DNA of 64,000 nucleotides from NCBI GenBank assembly GCA_042408215.1, contig JAYFMW010000030.1, positions 352,001 to 416,000 on the forward strand, read 5' to 3'. Source of the stretch: Microcoleus sp. (GTDB lineage: Bacteria > Cyanobacteriota > Cyanobacteriia > Cyanobacteriales > Microcoleaceae). Made by a program: the position numbers and the translations under genes. The notes beneath the pieces were generated by a model. That model was not told the origin of the DNA. It made no database searches and saw only the letters and a program-made list of their open reading frames with translations. This document shows, piece after piece, positions 4,001 through 53,151 of this stretch. Each line of letters begins with the position of its first letter. Within the stretch, counting starts at the first letter, position 1.

Positions 4001-4620
4001 GACCTTACCAGAGGTTTAAGAGAGTTACTTCGTTCCGATTACACATTGATTGAGTCTTTAGCGTGATGTTTTCCACCGGGTTTATTGGGCGGTGCTTATA
4101 AGTCGAATGGACATTCGCTTATGCCCTATCCTTGCCTTTTGGCTTGGTGTTATCAAGTTTTACCGCATTTTCAACGGATTTATCCTTGGTCAGCCATTTC
4201 ACCATTTATCATTACGATGGTTCAAACACATCATTGCTTTCGCTACGCATGGACTCTTGCTCGATAGTTACTAGATTTGGCTTCTAGTAGTTCTACCTTT
4301 TAACCCCGCTTTAGTTAATTGGTTGCTACCCAATTAACTAGGGGTTATGCTTTCACCTCTGCACTTGAGGGGAAGGACTTACCGCACGGCGGTTCACCTC
4401 CAAATGTAATCAGTTATCACCAGTCTTATCAACTAGGCTAACCGTCCCATAAGCGTTTCAGCTTATTTTAGGTTAAACGAATCGCACATCCATCTTTATA
4501 AAGGTAACACCAAGTAGCCAGTCCCCAGTTATAAGTAAACCTCGCTATGCCAGCGTGTTTACTCATGACCGTTGATTGACTCTTGTTTAGCTTTAACTTT
4601 GTTTTGATGGACAAAAGCAT
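1051..4620 (-). CDS. tnpB: IS607 TnpB RNA-guided nuclease split by a group II intron (exons 4488-4620 and 1051-2039; 373 aa when spliced)
   Basis: Exon 1 MLLSIKTKLKL...LYKDG joins exon 2 LKPNKYLLKKFFNNH in frame with no stops; RuvC motifs VGVDLG, VVEDL, DRDLNAA; zinc ribbon CSNC/CGSC. Confidence 0.88.
1073..1116 (-). repeat. Small palindromic dispersed repeat inserted in frame near the 3' end of tnpB
   Basis: GCCAGTGC..TTGGGGTTTCCCCAA..GCAACTGGC hairpin; adds about 15 aa (QCGLGVSPSGATGVS) between NLS and RLAK. Confidence 0.55.
2040..4487 (-). mobile_element. Group II intron (IIB-like), 2448 nt
   Basis: 5' end GTGCG at 4487; domain V GAGCGGAATGATGCGAAAGTATCACGTTCCGTTC; domain VI hairpin ending in AAC at 2040; candidate EBS1 GUCCAU (4107-4112) pairs with exon end AUGGAU. 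Confidence 0.93.
2158..3873 (-). CDS. ltrA: Group II intron reverse transcriptase/maturase with C-terminal HNH endonuclease
   Basis: RT0 GKNTAGVDG, PQGGVISPLLANIALH, YADD, X domain (NPIIRGW..YY), CTHC..EVDH..NLQLLHRHCH. Confidence 0.95.
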   Translation of the reverse strand: MNISKTLNNQTVEWKDINWRKLERVTFKLQKRIFQASERGDVKAVRKLQKTLIRSWSAKCIAVRRVTQDNQGKNTAGVDGVKALTPKQRINLIGKLKLTGKVKPTRRVNIPKPGTTETRPLGIPTINDRALQALVKLALEPEWEAKFEPNSYGFRPGRSCHDAIQAIFDSINKKAKYVLDADIAKCFDRIDHKALLSKIKTYPTLNRQIKSWLKAGYCDQDSLFPTNEGTPQGGVISPLLANIALHGMEERIKQYAETLKGKKRENRIALSLIRYADDFVIIHKDLNVVKKCQEIIAEWLRDMGRELKPNKTKLTHTLIKIDGNVGFEFLGFHVQQHKVGNYRSANSSQGIQLGFTTLITPSKAKVKTHLAKIAEVIDTHKTTSQAALISKLNPIIRGWSKYYSTQVSKQTYSRVDMLTWQKLRAWAKSRGKGSINKDKYWRTVGDRNWCFSTEDGLELLTHTNTPIVRHTKVKGEASPYNGDWIYWSKRRGEYPETPNRVASLIKRQKGICTHCGLYFTSTDIVEVDHIKPTSLGGKDTYDNLQLLHRHCHDAKTATDGSIHSKEDVKTR

Positions 4621-47394: not shown

Positions 47395-48600
47395 ATGACA
47401 TTTCAGAAATTAGATATCAATGACAGCAACCCGGAACTCTGCGATTTAATCTGCGAAAGAATTGCCGCAACTCCGCAGCAGCGAATTACCTTTGCTGAAT
47501 ATATGGATTTAGCATTATATCATCCGCAGTATGGTTACTATAATAGCGATCGCCCGGCGATCGGCAAACAAGGCGATTTTATCACGTCGTCTGATTGGGG
47601 TGCTGATTTTGCCGAGGTTTTGGCGGAGCAATTTGTGGAAATGTGGGAAATTCTCGATCGCCCTCAAAACTTCACAACCGTAGAAATGGGCGCTGGGCGG
47701 GGAACTTTCGCCAAAAATGTGCTGCAATACCTGCAACGGCAACATCCCGACTTATTTAAAACTTTAACATACATAATTGTTGAAATTTCGCCAATACTGC
47801 AAGCAGAACAACGGCAAAGTTTAGGTGATATCAAGTGTGTTAAATGGTGTCAGTGGGACGAGATAGTTGATAATTCAATTGTCGGCTGTTGTTTTTCTAA
47901 TGAATTAGTTGATGCTTTCCCCGTGCATCAATTCATTCTGGATCAAGGGCAAGTTATGGAAATTTATATTACCACAGAATCCCCAAAAAGTCAACAAAAA
48001 GAGATCGAATTTGTTGAGGTACTTGGCGAAGTATCTACACCTAAAATTGCTGAATATTTTGATTTTCTAGGCATAGATTTATCGGCGAGTGTTTACGGGG
48101 ATGGTTATCGCAGTGAGGTGAATTTGGCGGCTTTGGATTGGATGAGTACAGTTGCTCAAAAGTTGCAGCGGGGATATTTGTTAACTATTGATTACGGCCA
48201 TCCAGCGCACCGCTATTATAATCCGAGGCGCAGGGAGGGGACGCTACAGTGTTATTATCTGCACCGATATCACAATAATCCTTATATTAATGTGGGGCGG
48301 CAGGATTTGACGGCTCATGTCAATTTTACGGCGTTGGAAAAGCAGGGTGAATTGTGCGGTTTGGATGTGGTAGGGTTTACTCAGCAGGCTTTGTTTTTGA
48401 TGGCGTTGGGTTTGGGCGATCGGATTGCTTCTCTATCCACAAGTGTATTAGATGTGGCAACGTTGTTGCGGCGCAGGGAGGCTTTGCATCGGTTGATCGA
48501 TCCGATGGGTTTGGGGGGTTTTGGGGTTTTGGTGCAGTGTAAGGGGTTGAGGGAGGGGGGAAAGGGGAGAATATTGAAGGGTTTGATGGTGCCTGATTGA
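47395..48600 (+). CDS. MidA/NDUFAF7-family SAM-dependent methyltransferase
   Basis: ITFAEYM..LY.P..GYY, GDFITS, EMGAGRG, SNELVDAFP, IDYG, QDLTAHVNF. Confidence 0.9.
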   Translation: MTFQKLDINDSNPELCDLICERIAATPQQRITFAEYMDLALYHPQYGYYNSDRPAIGKQGDFITSSDWGADFAEVLAEQFVEMWEILDRPQNFTTVEMGAGRGTFAKNVLQYLQRQHPDLFKTLTYIIVEISPILQAEQRQSLGDIKCVKWCQWDEIVDNSIVGCCFSNELVDAFPVHQFILDQGQVMEIYITTESPKSQQKEIEFVEVLGEVSTPKIAEYFDFLGIDLSASVYGDGYRSEVNLAALDWMSTVAQKLQRGYLLTIDYGHPAHRYYNPRRREGTLQCYYLHRYHNNPYINVGRQDLTAHVNFTALEKQGELCGLDVVGFTQQALFLMALGLGDRIASLSTSVLDVATLLRRREALHRLIDPMGLGGFGVLVQCKGLREGGKGRILKGLMVPD

Positions 48601-48614
48601 TTATCCCAGATTGA

Positions 48615-48741
48615 TAAGCTGTTCTCCATTTAAACCAGTAACGAGGCTAGTAGGGTGCGTCAGCTAGAACCCTTACGCTGAAACGGAAAACCTTAGATAC
48701 TGACGCACCCTACGCCAGGAGTTTAAATGCCGAACAGCTTA
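48615..48741. repeat. MITE-like inverted-repeat element at the edge of the defence locus
   Basis: TAAGCTGTTC..ATTTAAAC / GTTTAAAT..GAACAGCTTA; inner GTAGGGTGCGTCAG / CTGACGCACCCTAC. Confidence 0.7.
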
Positions 48742-48746
48742 ATTAA

Positions 48747-49322
48747 CTAATTAAGCTGTTTTTTAACCGCACGAGCGATTAAAGGTGCTTTTTTTTCTAA
48801 CCCTTCTAAATTAAGTTCATTCTCTAGATACATCCGATACCACTCCTGACGTTGTTCAATCACCCATTCACTATTCTGAAGCTGTAACTGTTTGATGGTA
48901 AATTCGGCTCGATCGCGATCGCCGGAAGGAACCGCATCAGTCAAAACCAACTGACAAGAAGGTAGGATAATCTCAAACCAATTATCTTCCACTTCAAACG
49001 GATCGAGAATTTGTCGATCGTAAGTTCCTTTGCAGCTATTTACCCGTTGCAAAGCATAGCGATAGTTTTTCCATTCATAAATCAAATGGCGGTTTTCTGC
49101 TTTACTTTTACTCAAATAATGATCGACAGTTCCCATCCGACTCGGTATATACATAACTGAATAGCCACAAAGATTTTGGAACCCTTTAGCTAATGCGGGT
49201 TTTAAGGTAGACCAAAAATCCTTTGGTTCTTTCCCAGGATTGTTAACTAACCAATTATTGCCTGCTTTTCGCACTTTTTCCTCAAAATTTGCTGGTTCCG
49301 GTGGCGGAGTAAATTGTATCAT
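48747..49322 (-). CDS. HNH nuclease, Septu PtuB/retron-effector-like
   Basis: LCGYS..GTVDHYLSKS..YEWKNY..VNSCKG..LDPF; ATG 2 nt after the ATPase stop. Confidence 0.78.
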   Translation of the reverse strand: MIQFTPPPEPANFEEKVRKAGNNWLVNNPGKEPKDFWSTLKPALAKGFQNLCGYSVMYIPSRMGTVDHYLSKSKAENRHLIYEWKNYRYALQRVNSCKGTYDRQILDPFEVEDNWFEIILPSCQLVLTDAVPSGDRDRAEFTIKQLQLQNSEWVIEQRQEWYRMYLENELNLEGLEKKAPLIARAVKKQLN

Positions 49323-49324
49323 CT

Positions 49325-51013
49325 TTACTCTACCTCGGTGCTGACAATCCATCGCGGCCAGAAGCGATCGTGTTCTGGTAAAACTCGCAGGAGTTCCTGA
49401 TGAATTTGCTCTTTAGTTCTCAGGTATTCAGGAAAAGCATCTATGCTTTCTCCTCGCATGAAGGTATAGGCGGCATCAATCGCTATTTCTGCTTCGCGGG
49501 AACGAGCCTGTTTTAACCCAAAAATATCTGAAGTTAGCCACCCAACAGCATCGCCATGTTTTGTCCAAGGAACTTCATTAAGAGTTACATCTTTACCCTG
49601 TAATTCAAACAAAAATAACTTATCTTGTCCCTCATCAAATTGAGGCTCAATTGAGGCAAGTACCAGAGGAGAATGAGTTGTCGCTATTACTTGAATCGTT
49701 ATCTGTTTCTGGAGACTTCTAGCTACTTCTAAGATGGCGGGCAGAATAGATCGTTGCCACTGAGGATGCAAGTGAGCTTCAACCTCATCCATCAGCAAAA
49801 TCATGTGATCCACAGGTTCTTGCTGTCGCAGCTTAGATGCTAGCGTGTGTTCGTACCAAGCCCACACCAGCAAGTAAGCTAGTCCTAAAATACGTTTTAT
49901 TCCTGCTGATGCGTAGATGACGGGGACAGTGCCGTAAGGTAAATTAAGTGTAGGAATCTCACGCACATCCTCGACAGAAACCCTGGTTGGTTCTCCCGGT
50001 TCCATCCATTCATCAGCATGGGGAGAAAGTTGTCGAATGACGCGAGATAATAGTTGGAATTTAGAGCGATCGGGTTGACGTTGCCAATTCACCCAATCGT
50101 GAATTAAACCATTACATAGGACTTTATCACCTACTCTTAATCCATTCCAGAGACTATCGGTAGTAAAATGATAAGAACTTGACGGCTGGCGAGTTGAATC
50201 GAGCACTGAAAATCCATCAACACGGATATAAATAATCAAGCTTCTCAAGCTGGGAGACCTTCGCAGATTGAGCCATTTCTGATCGGAATAACTAAATAGA
50301 CTTCTATATTCCTCAGAGTCTTTTTGATTGCTCAAAAGAGATATAATTTCTGGTGTTTCTCCTTCTACTTGTTGGGGAAAAGCGGGATGATCAGACCAGT
50401 TTCCGGTTAGTACCCACCACGCAACATCCAACAGAAAGGTTTTTCCCAAACCATTATCTCCCGTAAATAAATTGATCCGTTCACCAAATTCGACATCGAA
50501 TTGCGGGGCTGAACCCACCCATTTGAGGTGAAGTTCTTTCAGCATTTTATGGTGAATATATCCATCAAACTCTAGGTAGTATTCAGAATCAGATAATTTA
50601 TACAGACGGATATAGTCCCTACCGTACTTCTGCAATGTCTCGCTAGTAACGGGTTCAAATTGTTTCAGAGCACCACTTTGTTCTAACTTACCTTTGATCC
50701 AGCGACCTAGAATTTTTAAGTCCTCCTTGGATCTAAGGTTTTTGTAATGATCGCCTTGAGTGCGACAGGTAAATTTTGAACCATCATCAGTATGGGCTGT
50801 AAAATCCCCCTGGGGATAAACAGGATTATTTGTTGTTTCTGTATCTACTATAATCTCAACTTCATACCAGTCTCTAGGGATCACCTTCCCCGTGGATTTA
50901 CTTTCTCTTCCTTTTCCGAAAAAAGCATTGAGATTGGATTTTTGCTGATCGTTAACCCTGGATAAAGATATATCCACATAGGGCGTTTCAGGAGTTATGG
51001 CTGGTATGGACAT
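49325..51013 (-). CDS. Fusion of an NgoFVII-type B3 DNA-binding domain (about aa 1-150) and a PtuA-like ABC ATPase
   Basis: KSNLNAFFGKGR..PRDWYEVEIIV..TDDG..KNLRS..DLKILGRWIKG; Walker A GDNGLGKT, signature ASAG, Walker B LMDEVEAHLHPQWQR, TTHSP. Confidence 0.85.
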   Translation of the reverse strand: MSIPAITPETPYVDISLSRVNDQQKSNLNAFFGKGRESKSTGKVIPRDWYEVEIIVDTETTNNPVYPQGDFTAHTDDGSKFTCRTQGDHYKNLRSKEDLKILGRWIKGKLEQSGALKQFEPVTSETLQKYGRDYIRLYKLSDSEYYLEFDGYIHHKMLKELHLKWVGSAPQFDVEFGERINLFTGDNGLGKTFLLDVAWWVLTGNWSDHPAFPQQVEGETPEIISLLSNQKDSEEYRSLFSYSDQKWLNLRRSPSLRSLIIYIRVDGFSVLDSTRQPSSSYHFTTDSLWNGLRVGDKVLCNGLIHDWVNWQRQPDRSKFQLLSRVIRQLSPHADEWMEPGEPTRVSVEDVREIPTLNLPYGTVPVIYASAGIKRILGLAYLLVWAWYEHTLASKLRQQEPVDHMILLMDEVEAHLHPQWQRSILPAILEVARSLQKQITIQVIATTHSPLVLASIEPQFDEGQDKLFLFELQGKDVTLNEVPWTKHGDAVGWLTSDIFGLKQARSREAEIAIDAAYTFMRGESIDAFPEYLRTKEQIHQELLRVLPEHDRFWPRWIVSTEVE

Positions 51014-51030
51014 TAAGTTACCTCACTTCA

Positions 51031-52173
51031 CTAAAAAGTAAATGTTAACTGTAATTGCTGTTCAGAAGCCTCTAATTCTGCGTGTTCTAATCGTTCCTTA
51101 ATTGACATCATTTGCAACTTTTGATTTAACTTGTATAAATCTACTTTCGGATAATCCTCTTTAAATAGCGGAATCAGTGATTCAACAACGTCAACTATTC
51201 CATCTGGCGGAACTGCATTGCCAATTTGTCTTCTTACTTCAGTAATAGAACCTTCAAAAACAAAATCATCGGGAAAACTTTGCAACCTTGCTCTTTCCCT
51301 ATTTGTCAATGAACGCGGTTCAGGATAATGATATCCCCAAGTACCACCACCACCACCAGCAATAATTGTAGCACAGGGTTTATCTGGATGAATTCGCCGA
51401 TAAACGTGACTGATCATGCCTTTTACATAGTATGGACTATCCTTCGGAATATCAGTAAAATTCCCTCCCGGTTTAATCCGACTCAAAATTTCAATGGTTC
51501 GAGGCTGAATTTTTTGATGTTCCTGATTATGTTCGACTTTTTCCACATTTTTGAGTGCTTCACCTGCTGTTCGATAGGGATATTTGCGATTTTCACCGTA
51601 TTCTGGCTGAGGATGCACAAAGTTAAATCCCGTATCCATCCGAATGCCAACTAATAACACTCTTTGGCGAAATTGGGGAACTCCGTAATCAGCAAAGTTG
51701 TAGAGTTTAGGTTTGACTAGGTAGCCCGGAGCGATACTTTCAAAGTCGGAAATTATTTGTTTTATTGCTTGATAATTATTGGCACTTAATAAGCCTTTGA
51801 CATTTTCTGCTACAAAAGCTTTGGGCTTTTTCTTATTGACAAAATCGAGAAAGTATGTATATAAATTGCCTCTGGTTCCTTCGAGTCCGGGGCGTTTCCA
51901 AATCATAGAAAAATCTTGACAAGGGAAGCCTCCTATACATATTTCTGCTTCGGGAACTTGTGCAATGTCTATATTTTCTATGTTGTCGTTGACGATGACA
52001 TCAGCAATGTTTCTACTGAATGTTTGACAGGCGTATTTATTGGAGTCGATCGCCCAAACTACCTCAAATCCGGCTTTGTGGAATGGTAAGTCCATGCCGC
52101 CGCAACCGGAAAATAATGAGATCAGTTGGGGCTTTGTTTTCCAGGCGATGGGCTTGAGACGTTCGATTAACAT
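51031..52173 (-). CDS. C5-cytosine DNA methyltransferase, M.NgoFVII-like
   Basis: FSGCGG, GFPCQDFS, ENVKG, VPQ.R.R, AGGGGGTWGYH..RERARLQSFPD, QIGNAV. Confidence 0.93.
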   Translation of the reverse strand: MLIERLKPIAWKTKPQLISLFSGCGGMDLPFHKAGFEVVWAIDSNKYACQTFSRNIADVIVNDNIENIDIAQVPEAEICIGGFPCQDFSMIWKRPGLEGTRGNLYTYFLDFVNKKKPKAFVAENVKGLLSANNYQAIKQIISDFESIAPGYLVKPKLYNFADYGVPQFRQRVLLVGIRMDTGFNFVHPQPEYGENRKYPYRTAGEALKNVEKVEHNQEHQKIQPRTIEILSRIKPGGNFTDIPKDSPYYVKGMISHVYRRIHPDKPCATIIAGGGGGTWGYHYPEPRSLTNRERARLQSFPDDFVFEGSITEVRRQIGNAVPPDGIVDVVESLIPLFKEDYPKVDLYKLNQKLQMMSIKERLEHAELEASEQQLQLTFTF

Positions 52174-52380
52174 ATTAGTTCGCAGTAGGACAAGGGCTGG
52201 CTGAATGCCGGCACCACAAGATAGTAATTATACCAAAATATAGTCGAATTCGACTAATCAATTGATCTTTCATTCTTCATCGTCGGGCTAAAAACCCGGT
52301 TTCTACGTCAATATTTCTCGCAGGGATGCAAGATTGTGCTCAGAAACCGGGTTTTTTGCGTAAGTCCTGCAATTGATATT

Positions 52381-53151
52381 TCACTCTTCATCGTCTAACT
52401 CGATCGCCACTTGACGCAGTTTTTCGGCCAATTTTTCAGCGCGGAGGCGTTCGCGATCGCCCCGCTGACGTTCTTGTTCTGTTCGTTCCTCCGACCACAA
52501 CAATAACTCGCCTGCTGCATTCCACCACCTCAGCCAACAGCCTGTTCTCCCTTCGTGGGTTCCTTCCCAAATTCCTAAAAATAAGTCTAATCCCGGTATC
52601 CAATAACGTCCATTTTCATCGGGTTTTTGCAAGTTGTAACGCTCTGATTCTAAAGCATAAACTTCTAAATGAGCGGTAGTTGCCCGAAAAATGACGTATC
52701 TGGGGACTTTGATTACTTGCTCGTAAAAAAACCACTTTCCCACCCGCGAGGTAAACTCAACAGAGTATTCTTCTCCGTAGGTTTCTGACAGAAATTCCAT
52801 CAGGATTTGGGGGATGGTTCCTTCTGTGTGTGGCGTGTAACTGCGGCGGATTTGCGAGACATTTTTGGGATTGACGGGTTTCACGTACATCCAATCTGGT
52901 GCTTTGCAGATAATGCGCTGTTCGCCGCTGGTTGAACCTGGGAAACTTATGCCGGCACAAAGGGCAAAGTTGGAAACTATTAAGGCATTCTGCATTAATT
53001 CAGGAAATGCTGTTAGTGGCTGGCGCAAAGCTGCGGCTAATAATGGTTGGCTTTCGTCTTCCACGGGGTCGTCTGGTAGTTGGAAATCTTCTGGTAGTAG
53101 CGGCCAGGTGATTGTGAGTTTTGTTGCTGGGTTTTTAGTTGCTACAGACAT
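52381..53151 (-). CDS. Uma2-family (DUF820) endonuclease-fold protein
   Basis: LPDDPVE, KAPDW.YV, EFLSET, FYEQ..VP.Y, WLRWW; coiled-coil tail. Confidence 0.85.
   Translation of the reverse strand: MSVATKNPATKLTITWPLLPEDFQLPDDPVEDESQPLLAAALRQPLTAFPELMQNALIVSNFALCAGISFPGSTSGEQRIICKAPDWMYVKPVNPKNVSQIRRSYTPHTEGTIPQILMEFLSETYGEEYSVEFTSRVGKWFFYEQVIKVPRYVIFRATTAHLEVYALESERYNLQKPDENGRYWIPGLDLFLGIWEGTHEGRTGCWLRWWNAAGELLLWSEERTEQERQRGDRERLRAEKLAEKLRQVAIELDDEE

Follow-up and report, generated by a model that had tools for sequence, protein, structure and literature searches.

A Septu ATPase fused to the DNA-recognition domain of an NgoFVII-type restriction enzyme in Microcoleus: a candidate methylation-protected defense system

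In a 64,000-nucleotide (nt) stretch of a Microcoleus sp. genome (assembly GCA_042408215.1, contig JAYFMW010000030.1, positions 352,001 to 416,000; hereafter the window), three minus-strand genes encode a C5 DNA methyltransferase (methylase), a PtuA ATPase preceded in the same reading frame by a B3-like DNA-recognition domain of the NgoFVII/NgoAVII restriction enzyme family, and a PtuB HNH nuclease. Judged by the sequences of its PtuA and PtuB, the locus is a member of the Septu defense family. We are inclined, if only slightly, to the view that the B3 domain directs PtuAB to unmethylated GCSGC/GCCGC-type sites, with genus-wide methylation of these sites protecting self.

Searched against Pfam and PADLOC, the two halves of the middle gene product, a single unbroken frame of 562 amino acids (aa) on the minus strand (51013..49325), fall into two different families. 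Residues 19 to 140 match Pfam PF20731 (RE_NgoFVII_C), and this part also matches the solved B3 domain of R.NgoAVII (4rd5, E = 8.5e-35; 4rct, E = 7.3e-34). The match to the PADLOC profile REase_II (PDLC03530) is confined to the C-terminal part of the profile (positions 214 to 338 of 350); the B3 domain is C-terminal in NgoFVII-family enzymes and N-terminal in the fusion. The PtuA part (aa 157 to 560) covers positions 1 to 418 of the 424 in PADLOC PDLC00307, also matches Pfam AAA_15, AAA_21, and AAA_23, and is matched by PDB PtuA chains (8ee4, 9vkz, and others; E = 1e-8 to 1e-6) at the C-terminal ATPase motifs. The Walker A (GDNGLGKT, residue 185), signature-like (SAGIKR, 369), Walker B (ILLMDE, 405), and H-loop (THSP, 446) motifs were all located. 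No match to the PLD nuclease domain PF09565 was found in the 562-aa protein with Pfam, and the four weak PF09565 matches in the whole genome are to unrelated open reading frames (ORFs) on other contigs. The fusion gene is the sole PF20731 match across the 7.36-Mb genome, and PtuB is present in a single copy; the Pfam HNH model did not match the window PtuB and matched a homologue (locus L053) weakly. A first-pass annotation of this DNA, made from the letters alone, had named the four domain types (NgoFVII-type B3, PtuA ATPase, PtuB HNH, and C5 methylase), described the ATPase motifs as intact, and noted the absence of the PLD nuclease; the Pfam, PADLOC, and PDB matches bear it out on each of these points. 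The NCBIfam retron/Septu equivalogs scored below their cut-offs (NF041760, 53 bits versus 500; NF041761, 21.5 bits versus 150), and by sequence the window PtuAB is a subfamily distinct from the retron Ec78 pair. An AlphaFold2 model of the whole fusion (mean predicted local distance difference test score [pLDDT] of 66, with the B3 part below 50) was too poor for a fold search.

The partner helicase of the NgoAVII type was likewise correctly reported missing. A CglI-type helicase acting in trans was considered and rejected, as the genome's sole Z1 gene lies on another contig (C5), in a different operon between another C5 methylase and a DUF4420 gene. That operon is itself a candidate restriction-like system (L069:2563-9515; contig C5:19562-26514), composed of a 581-aa protein without a family, a C5 methylase of 404 aa, a 924-aa Z1 protein, and a DUF4420 protein of the PD-(D/E)XK type; an IS605-type OrfB and a resolvase gene lie 3′ of it.

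The first-pass annotation had also proposed that the specificity module of a restriction-modification (RM) system was grafted onto a Septu-like effector, and this graft is traceable to canonical methylase and PLD-B3 genes in the same hisS/ndhH slot of Dapis, Okeania, and a Microcoleaceae metagenome-assembled genome (MAG). The slot, common to related loci, reads hisS-Uma2-[variable part]-Methyltransf_28-ndhH. In Dapis (L048) it holds a methylase 81% identical to that of the window, a spacer of 17 nt (methylase ORF end at 4407, restriction gene start at 4425), and a 338-aa PLD::B3 enzyme (PF09565 plus PF20731) ending in YYLEF and a stop codon, while frameshifted PLD-B3 versions are found in Okeania (L047) and the Microcoleaceae MAG (L043). 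The 17-nt spacer between methylase and restriction gene is common to L048 and the window, and the surrounding sequence is similar; on this comparison, the window's spacer is inherited from a canonical RM operon. Downstream of the spacer and start codon, the window continues with the sequence of the PLD-to-B3 linking region of L048. The comparison with L048 therefore indicates that the PLD domain was deleted in frame and that a linker leading into ptuA took the place of the stop codon behind LEF. The ancestor would have been an NgoFVII-kind Type II system (C5 methylase plus PLD-nuclease::B3) lying between hisS/Uma2 and ndhH; once the PLD domain had been deleted in frame and the B3 stop codon lost, the reader would have become the N-terminal domain of a Septu PtuA. 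Sequence comparison thereby gives good support to an origin of the locus from a canonical RM operon at this chromosomal position.

To determine how widely the fusion is distributed, we surveyed 79 species-representative genomes of the genus, the window's own included; these are relatives and not independent cases. An intact B3::PtuA fusion (type A) is present in 10/79, methylase, PtuA, and PtuB without B3 (type B; PtuA 82 to 84% identical) in another 10, a B3-only ORF (type C) in 4, a decayed copy in 1, and only a distant long-form PtuA in 2; the remaining 52 genomes gave no match. A more distant relative (L018) also carries an intact fusion, and its occurrence there and in ten genus genomes shows that the fusion is not an assembly artifact. 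The L018 contig is labelled as an Actinomycetota MAG; it carries hisS, Uma2, methylase, fusion, and ptuB in the window's order at 74 to 85% identity and is most likely cyanobacterial and wrongly binned. Across 5.8 billion proteins searched, 17 further full-length fusion clusters were recovered (561 to 570 aa, 78 to 91% identical, Microcoleus where named), the next relatives being unfused PtuA proteins of about 402 to 425 aa. When the B3 part was searched against proteins of similar length, the best 120 of 343 matches comprised 20 proteins with B3 plus ATPase, all of this lineage, and 100 canonical PLD plus B3 enzymes. A search of 1.84 billion proteins at any length gave 331 representatives, and of the best 150 only 3 have an N-terminal B3 domain before a long tail, namely the fusion (P0011), a fragment of the fusion (P0221), and P0258. 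The last was rejected as a second B3 fusion, since its Met-less start and 100-aa tail without a family probably reflect a fragment or read-through. No second lineage with the B3::PtuA architecture was found among the best 120 of 343 and the best 150 of 331 B3 matches.

The junction itself is variable in sequence and constant in frame. Canonical (L048) and B3-only ORFs terminate after YYLEF, and fusions read on in frame through linkers such as DVSIQHK, DVSIHYK, DGSIHHK, and DLSIHHKGHKR, or one of 15 residues in L018; the frame is kept in 10/10 type A loci. Where the PtuA start lacks a Met, as in L007 and L018, the ATPase can be made only as a fusion. In type C loci the methylase is followed by the B3-only ORF, 88 to 91% identical to the window B3, and then by a 215-aa gene. 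Decay was seen in L054 (methylase intact, B3 cut at 112 aa, remnants of PtuA and PtuB) and L071 (a 39-residue PtuA remnant), and in L002 a premature stop at codon 140 truncates PtuB. Three of the loci without B3 (L008, L009, and L013) contain an insert of about 100 nt in the methylase-ptuA spacer, about 100 to 170 nt upstream of ptuA; this insert includes GTCATTCTGAGCGAAGCGAAGAATCTC and resembles a small cyanobacterial repeat element.

In a tree of B3 sequences, all fused and B3-only copies group together in one clade, separate from the canonical enzymes (SH-aLRT 96). In the PtuA tree, rooted on unfused Nostocales copies, the first branch is the fused L018, which falls outside the Microcoleus copies as a whole, and one clade nested among fused copies holds the unfused (type B) copies of Microcoleus, a pattern that fits a single later loss of B3. 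Identities within the window are mosaic (B3 closest to type C, PtuA to L001/L002, and methylase to L003). The trees were quick and these mosaic identities suggest recombination, so the sequence in which the events took place is not firm. Taken together, these sequence comparisons indicate that the fusion is real, old, and of a single origin.

Selection on the parts was estimated from pairwise (NG86) ratios of nonsynonymous to synonymous substitution rates (dN/dS), given as medians among the ten fused loci. The B3 part has a median dN/dS of 0.14 at a dS of 0.93 (42/45 pairs usable), compared with 0.18 (dS = 0.62) for the PtuA part, 0.08 (dS = 0.58) for the methylase, and 0.33 (dS = 0.19) for PtuB. 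By this measure the B3 part is under purifying selection. The dS of ptuB is far below that of the adjacent ptuA, B3, and methylase, and recent gene conversion or exchange of the cassette's 3′ end is possible. In type C loci, pairwise dN/dS of the B3-only ORF is 0.17 to 0.42, about 0.2 (5/6 pairs usable), at dS values of 0.02 to 0.16.

The recognition surface of the B3 domain was examined at two levels. Conservation among 101 canonical PLD-B3 enzymes reaches 85% or more at 42 alignment columns, and across these the ten fusions hold the consensus residue in 416/420 cells. The R.NgoAVII residues named in PMC4267654 were mapped through the alignment of the PDB chain, in which an offset of 20 puts K212, K275, and R285 on K, K, and R. 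R285 is described as reading the central G, and positions 241 and 243 as contacting the central base pair (PMC4267654); the latter two are D in the text of that paper and E in the deposited chain. The equivalent of R285 (R94) is invariant among the fusions, and those of 241/243 (E51/E53) are retained, except for E53D in L018.

PtuA and PtuB are a textbook binding pair. In solved Septu and retron complexes, an oligomeric PtuA ATPase scaffolds and restrains the HNH nuclease, the complexes are kept inactive by ATP or by retron multicopy single-stranded DNA (msDNA) threaded through PtuA, and the substrates include plasmid DNA, single-stranded DNA, and tRNA-Tyr (PMC12640716, PMC13376987). At the locus described here, the methylase would mark chromosomal GCSGC/GCCGC-type sites, and the B3 domains of the PtuA oligomer would bind such sites only where they are unmethylated, a state expected of phage or plasmid DNA entering the cell. 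Binding would then bring or release the PtuB HNH nuclease at the site, and the foreign DNA would be nicked or cut. The balance of evidence tips a little toward an RM system whose cutting part has been exchanged; the recognition sequence, the blocking of B3 binding by methylation, the control of PtuAB by B3, and the anti-phage activity are predicted features of this model.

The methylase is 60 to 63% identical to methylases that lie beside canonical NgoFVII-type genes in three other phyla (L045, L046, and L049), and it is predicted to be of the GCSGC/GCCGC type; a catalogue of predicted GCsGC methylases and restriction enzymes in cyanobacteria exists (Elhai 2015, PMC4390886). Of the 79 genus genomes, 78 carry it, the sole exception being a genome that is 67% complete. 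The first-pass annotation had taken the methylase as a dedicated partner of the fusion and the HNH nuclease, an idea that had to be given up: a dedicated three-gene system is ruled out by a methylase found in 78/79 genomes, B3 and PtuAB present or not. Because the gene is near-core in the genus, its position next to the fusion would be expected anyway and is no evidence of coupling. The genome has about 15,000 GCSGC/GCCGC-type sites. The window has 120 GCSGC sites versus 94 expected, which speaks neither for nor against restriction pressure, and the operon contains four, all within coding sequence. Autoregulation by B3 was rejected, as no GCSGC lies between the methylase start and the Uma2 gene and none in the 200 nt upstream of the methylase. 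The most avoided pentamers in the genome are GGWCC (observed/expected ratio [O/E] of 0.22) and those containing GATC (O/E of 0.44 to 0.53), and CGCGC/GCGCG are over-represented (1.32).

The 215-aa gene of type C loci, which has no Pfam or PADLOC family, adjoins the methylase in 7/7 inspected loci, four of them B3-only (L038 to L041) and three without B3 or PtuAB (L070, L072, and L073). It takes the place of PtuAB in the B3-only loci (for example, L038:5506-6153), occurs in 52/79 genus genomes and not in that of the window, and has homologues of 49 to 67% identity in Scytonema and other cyanobacteria. Loci with B3 and loci without it each occur in two versions, one with PtuAB and one with the 215-aa gene.

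Several observations weigh against targeting of PtuAB by the B3 domain. The predicted specificity of the methylase rests on synteny with NgoFVII-type enzymes, and in most genomes the methylase is unaccompanied by B3 or PtuAB. B3 is missing from ten genus genomes that retain methylase, PtuA, and PtuB, so PtuAB can do without the domain; four keep a B3-only ORF (dN/dS of about 0.2) without PtuAB, and B3 may therefore have a value of its own. Decay has set in at L054 and L071, and PtuB is truncated in L002. The clamp lysines of R.NgoAVII are lost in the fusions (K212 replaced by N or D, K275 by R, S, or Q). We list here as well, as a result neutral for the reading, that GCSGC is not avoided in the genome (O/E of 0.96, rank 315 of 1,024 pentamers). 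Some of these observations would be accommodated if the fusion were tolerated history, with PtuAB an ordinary stand-alone Septu, the methylase a core orphan, and B3 inessential to defense. The PtuAB of the ten type B genomes, the absence of an upstream methylase from 11 scanned Nostocales PtuAB loci, the near-universal methylase, and the restriction of the fusion to one lineage (in the best 150 of 331 B3 representatives, it is seen in P0011 and the fragment P0221 alone) are in keeping with such a relic. A useless domain of 149 residues, however, should not show a dN/dS of 0.14 at a dS of 0.93, nor should it have kept 416/420 family-conserved cells despite divergence or held its frame while the linker changed and the internal Met disappeared, and we regard a relic as unlikely.

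The same conservation would be expected if B3 were a sensor and not a targeting device. Binding of unmethylated sites, or titration of B3 away from host DNA, would then switch the PtuA oligomer out of a quiescent, ATP-bound state into an active one, and PtuB would cut DNA or tRNA indiscriminately, resulting in abortive infection. That PtuAB complexes are held inactive by ATP or msDNA and act on several substrates (PMC12640716, PMC13376987) agrees with this scheme. A reader protected by a methylase, in contrast, is the classical architecture of restriction and not of abortive infection, and we consider a sensor unlikely too, marginally more so than a relic. B3 might instead be autonomous, for example a methylation-sensitive DNA-binding or regulatory protein that is either free (149 aa, type C) or attached, its attachment to PtuA being incidental. 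Four genomes with an intact B3-only ORF beside the methylase and an unrelated 215-aa gene, and the dN/dS of these ORFs (5/6 pairs usable), would suit an autonomous protein. These loci, however, are few and young (dS of 0.02 to 0.16), so that selection on them is poorly resolved; the four GCSGC sites of the operon are all coding and none lies in the 200 nt upstream of the methylase; and a literature search at the level of listings returned no free regulatory B3 protein. Autonomy of B3 is in our estimate quite improbable, and targeting of PtuAB by a methylation-blocked reader remains the reading to which we lean.

Other members of this PtuA clade also carry N-terminal additions. Eleven of 11 scanned Nostocales loci of the closest unfused PtuAB pairs lack an upstream methylase. 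Three genus genomes (G053, G015, and G029) encode a distant long-form PtuA of about 650 aa. In the first of these (L053:3257-6670, contig C62), an N4/N6 methylase (PF01555) is followed by a 644-aa PtuA that covers PADLOC PDLC00270 end to end (E = 3e-262) and by a PtuB of the PDLC00348 family; this set of three genes is also found in another cyanobacterial locus (L055) and in a KSB1 MAG (L034; methylase 68% identical). The PtuA part of the long form is 43 to 44% identical to that of the window, and its N-terminal region of about 215 aa has no Pfam match. An AlphaFold2 model of this region from a 10-row alignment (pLDDT of 57) was too poor for a fold search, and an ESM Atlas match to plant transposase clusters (score of 0.89, recognition below threshold) was dismissed as noise. 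Six further long-form loci, all from one other cyanobacterial genus, carry a DUF29 gene, and the 1.5 kb upstream of them contains no methylase (6/9 examined). A third N-terminal domain, unrelated to the other two, is found in L042. Judging from these sequences, N-terminal additions recur in this PtuA clade. A broader proposal, to which we give slightly less than an even chance, is that the PtuA N terminus is a plug-in socket for self/non-self readers, in which a Type II enzyme dropped its PLD nuclease and gave its methylation-blocked GCSGC reader to PtuAB, yielding an ATP-regulated, methylation-protected restriction enzyme.

The layout of the locus is given in Table 1. The description of three close-set genes on one strand, with gaps of 17 and 2 nt (51030..51014 and 49324..49323), agrees with the ORF map and the start of the PtuB profile match. 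The longest ptuB ORF spans 49352..48747, and the PDLC00348 match covers its residues 11 to 199; since the match begins at residue 11, the likely start is at 49322. The operon is, as noted earlier, richer in A+T than its neighbors, the difference being modest (G+C of 0.38 to 0.44 across 49000-52000 versus 0.44 to 0.50 in most flanking bins). The Uma2 family (PF05685) is putatively restriction endonuclease-like; the Uma2 gene is kept in 21/23 type A, B, and C loci as well as in the window and L054, is absent from L016, and persists as a C-terminal remnant in L005. Related loci, the canonical one of Dapis among them, have the Methyltransf_28 gene at the equivalent place. A promoter and terminator scan of 48400-52500 gave counts no different from shuffled expectation. 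Contigs over parts of the operon were present in four metatranscriptome runs (RNA libraries), and one of 286 nt, identical to the window, crosses the fusion junction (50413-50698), weak evidence for which DNA carry-over is possible. Such contigs show neither strand nor level, and stretches left uncovered carry no meaning.

Table 1. Features of the methylase-B3::PtuA-PtuB locus and its borders (window coordinates)
Feature	Coordinates	Strand	Supporting match
C5 DNA methyltransferase, 380 aa	51031..52173	-	PF00145, E = 4.7e-76; TIGR00675, above cut-off; PADLOC MTase_II PDLC03378, E = 2.1e-114
Spacer between methylase and fusion gene, 17 nt	51014..51030	-	
B3-like DNA-recognition domain, aa 1-149, NgoFVII/NgoAVII family	50567..51013	-	PF20731, E = 2e-29
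Linker DGYIHHK, 7 residues (aa 150-156), at the position of the canonical enzyme's stop codon	50546..50566	-	
PtuA ABC-type ATPase, aa 157-562 plus stop	49325..50545	-	PADLOC PDLC00307, E = 3.2e-172
PtuB HNH nuclease, 191 aa from Met at 49322	48747..49322	-	PADLOC PDLC00348, E = 1.5e-72
Uma2-family gene, left border of the variable slot, hisS beyond	52381..53151	-	PF05685, E = 3.3e-7
Methyltransf_28-family gene, right border of the variable slot, ndhH beyond	47395..48600	+	PF02636, E = 6.7e-75

On the question of how a stand-alone Septu distinguishes phage from self, the literature discusses inhibition by ATP and, in retrons, msDNA (PMC12640716, PMC13376987). The locus described here offers a Septu with a sensor of solved DNA complex, a predictable 5-bp target, and an adjacent methylase expected to switch the sensor off. 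Because sensor domain, predicted target, and methylase are all defined, Septu sensing is directly testable with plasmids bearing methylated or unmethylated sites. Natural controls occupy the same slot: canonical restriction enzyme, reader::PtuAB, PtuAB without reader, reader alone, and methylase alone. The locus further documents the rebuilding of a defense system from parts of two others at a fixed hotspot, in which a near-core orphan methylase would be re-used as the self mark. Septu may here act like an RM system with a predictable target site. If so, Septu would discriminate foreign DNA directly by its modification state and not by indirect sensing of infection, and the B3 fusion together with the methylase-linked long-form PtuA, which spans at least two phyla, would define a class of "restriction-type Septu."

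To our knowledge, no characterized Septu has a DNA-sequence reader or a methylase. Type I Septu consists of the ABC-type ATPase PtuA and the HNH nuclease PtuB (Doron 2018, as cited in PMC8565338). The window PtuA and PtuB match the PADLOC Septu models over their full length and are encoded by adjacent genes; they differ from that system in the N-terminal B3 reader of PtuA, placed downstream of the reader's ancestral methylase, and in resembling the solved E. coli PtuA only distantly (E = 2e-7, over the C-terminal motifs alone). With the NgoFVII family and the NgoAVII/CglI systems, the locus shares a B3 domain of the same family, a C5 methylase of the syntenic family, and the same methylase-then-reader order and spacer. 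The reader would also depend on an NTPase partner, as it does in NgoAVII and CglI (PMC4267654, PMC4267653). Because the PLD domain is missing, the nuclease being a separate HNH protein, the locus falls outside the NgoFVII restriction enzyme family. The reader is fused to its NTPase, an ABC-type PtuA, whereas NgoAVII and CglI have a separate DEAD-Z1 helicase, and the locus is not of the CglI/NgoAVII type because the operon has no DEAD-Z1 subunit. The long-form PtuA loci (L053, L055, and L034) present the same arrangement of methylase, N-terminal domain::PtuA, and PtuB; their N-terminal domain lacks a Pfam match and their methylase is of another class, whereas the window's N-terminal domain is a reader with a solved DNA complex.

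The methylase-associated defense system (MADS) includes an ABC/OLD-like ATPase and nuclease module, MAD3-MAD4 (PMC13662399), and thus resembles the locus in its association with a methylase and in this module. MADS has no B3 reader, however, and the MAD3 model NF047739 matched weakly and partially (24.5 bits versus a cut-off of 420). No PADLOC mad model was found among the best 25 rows for each window gene, the only mad match seen being that of mad2 to the unrelated L053 methylase (E = 4.9e-13). The PADLOC paper describes a trio of helicase, m5C methylase, and ATPase (Hma) that is often near Septu. In the literature covered (listings, abstract openings, and selected passages), neither a B3-PtuA fusion nor a Septu dependent on a methylase came up.

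In McrBC, reader and NTPase are joined in McrB, an oligomeric, GTP-dependent AAA+ protein with an N-terminal reader of methylated DNA, and the nuclease is a separate subunit, McrC, of the PD-(D/E)XK type. The window operon follows the same logic of reader::NTPase plus separate nuclease, but its reader should be blocked by methylation, its ATPase is of the ABC type, and its nuclease is of the HNH type. From these comparisons, we infer that the locus would work most like an RM system and be built most like McrBC, with the opposite polarity toward methylation.

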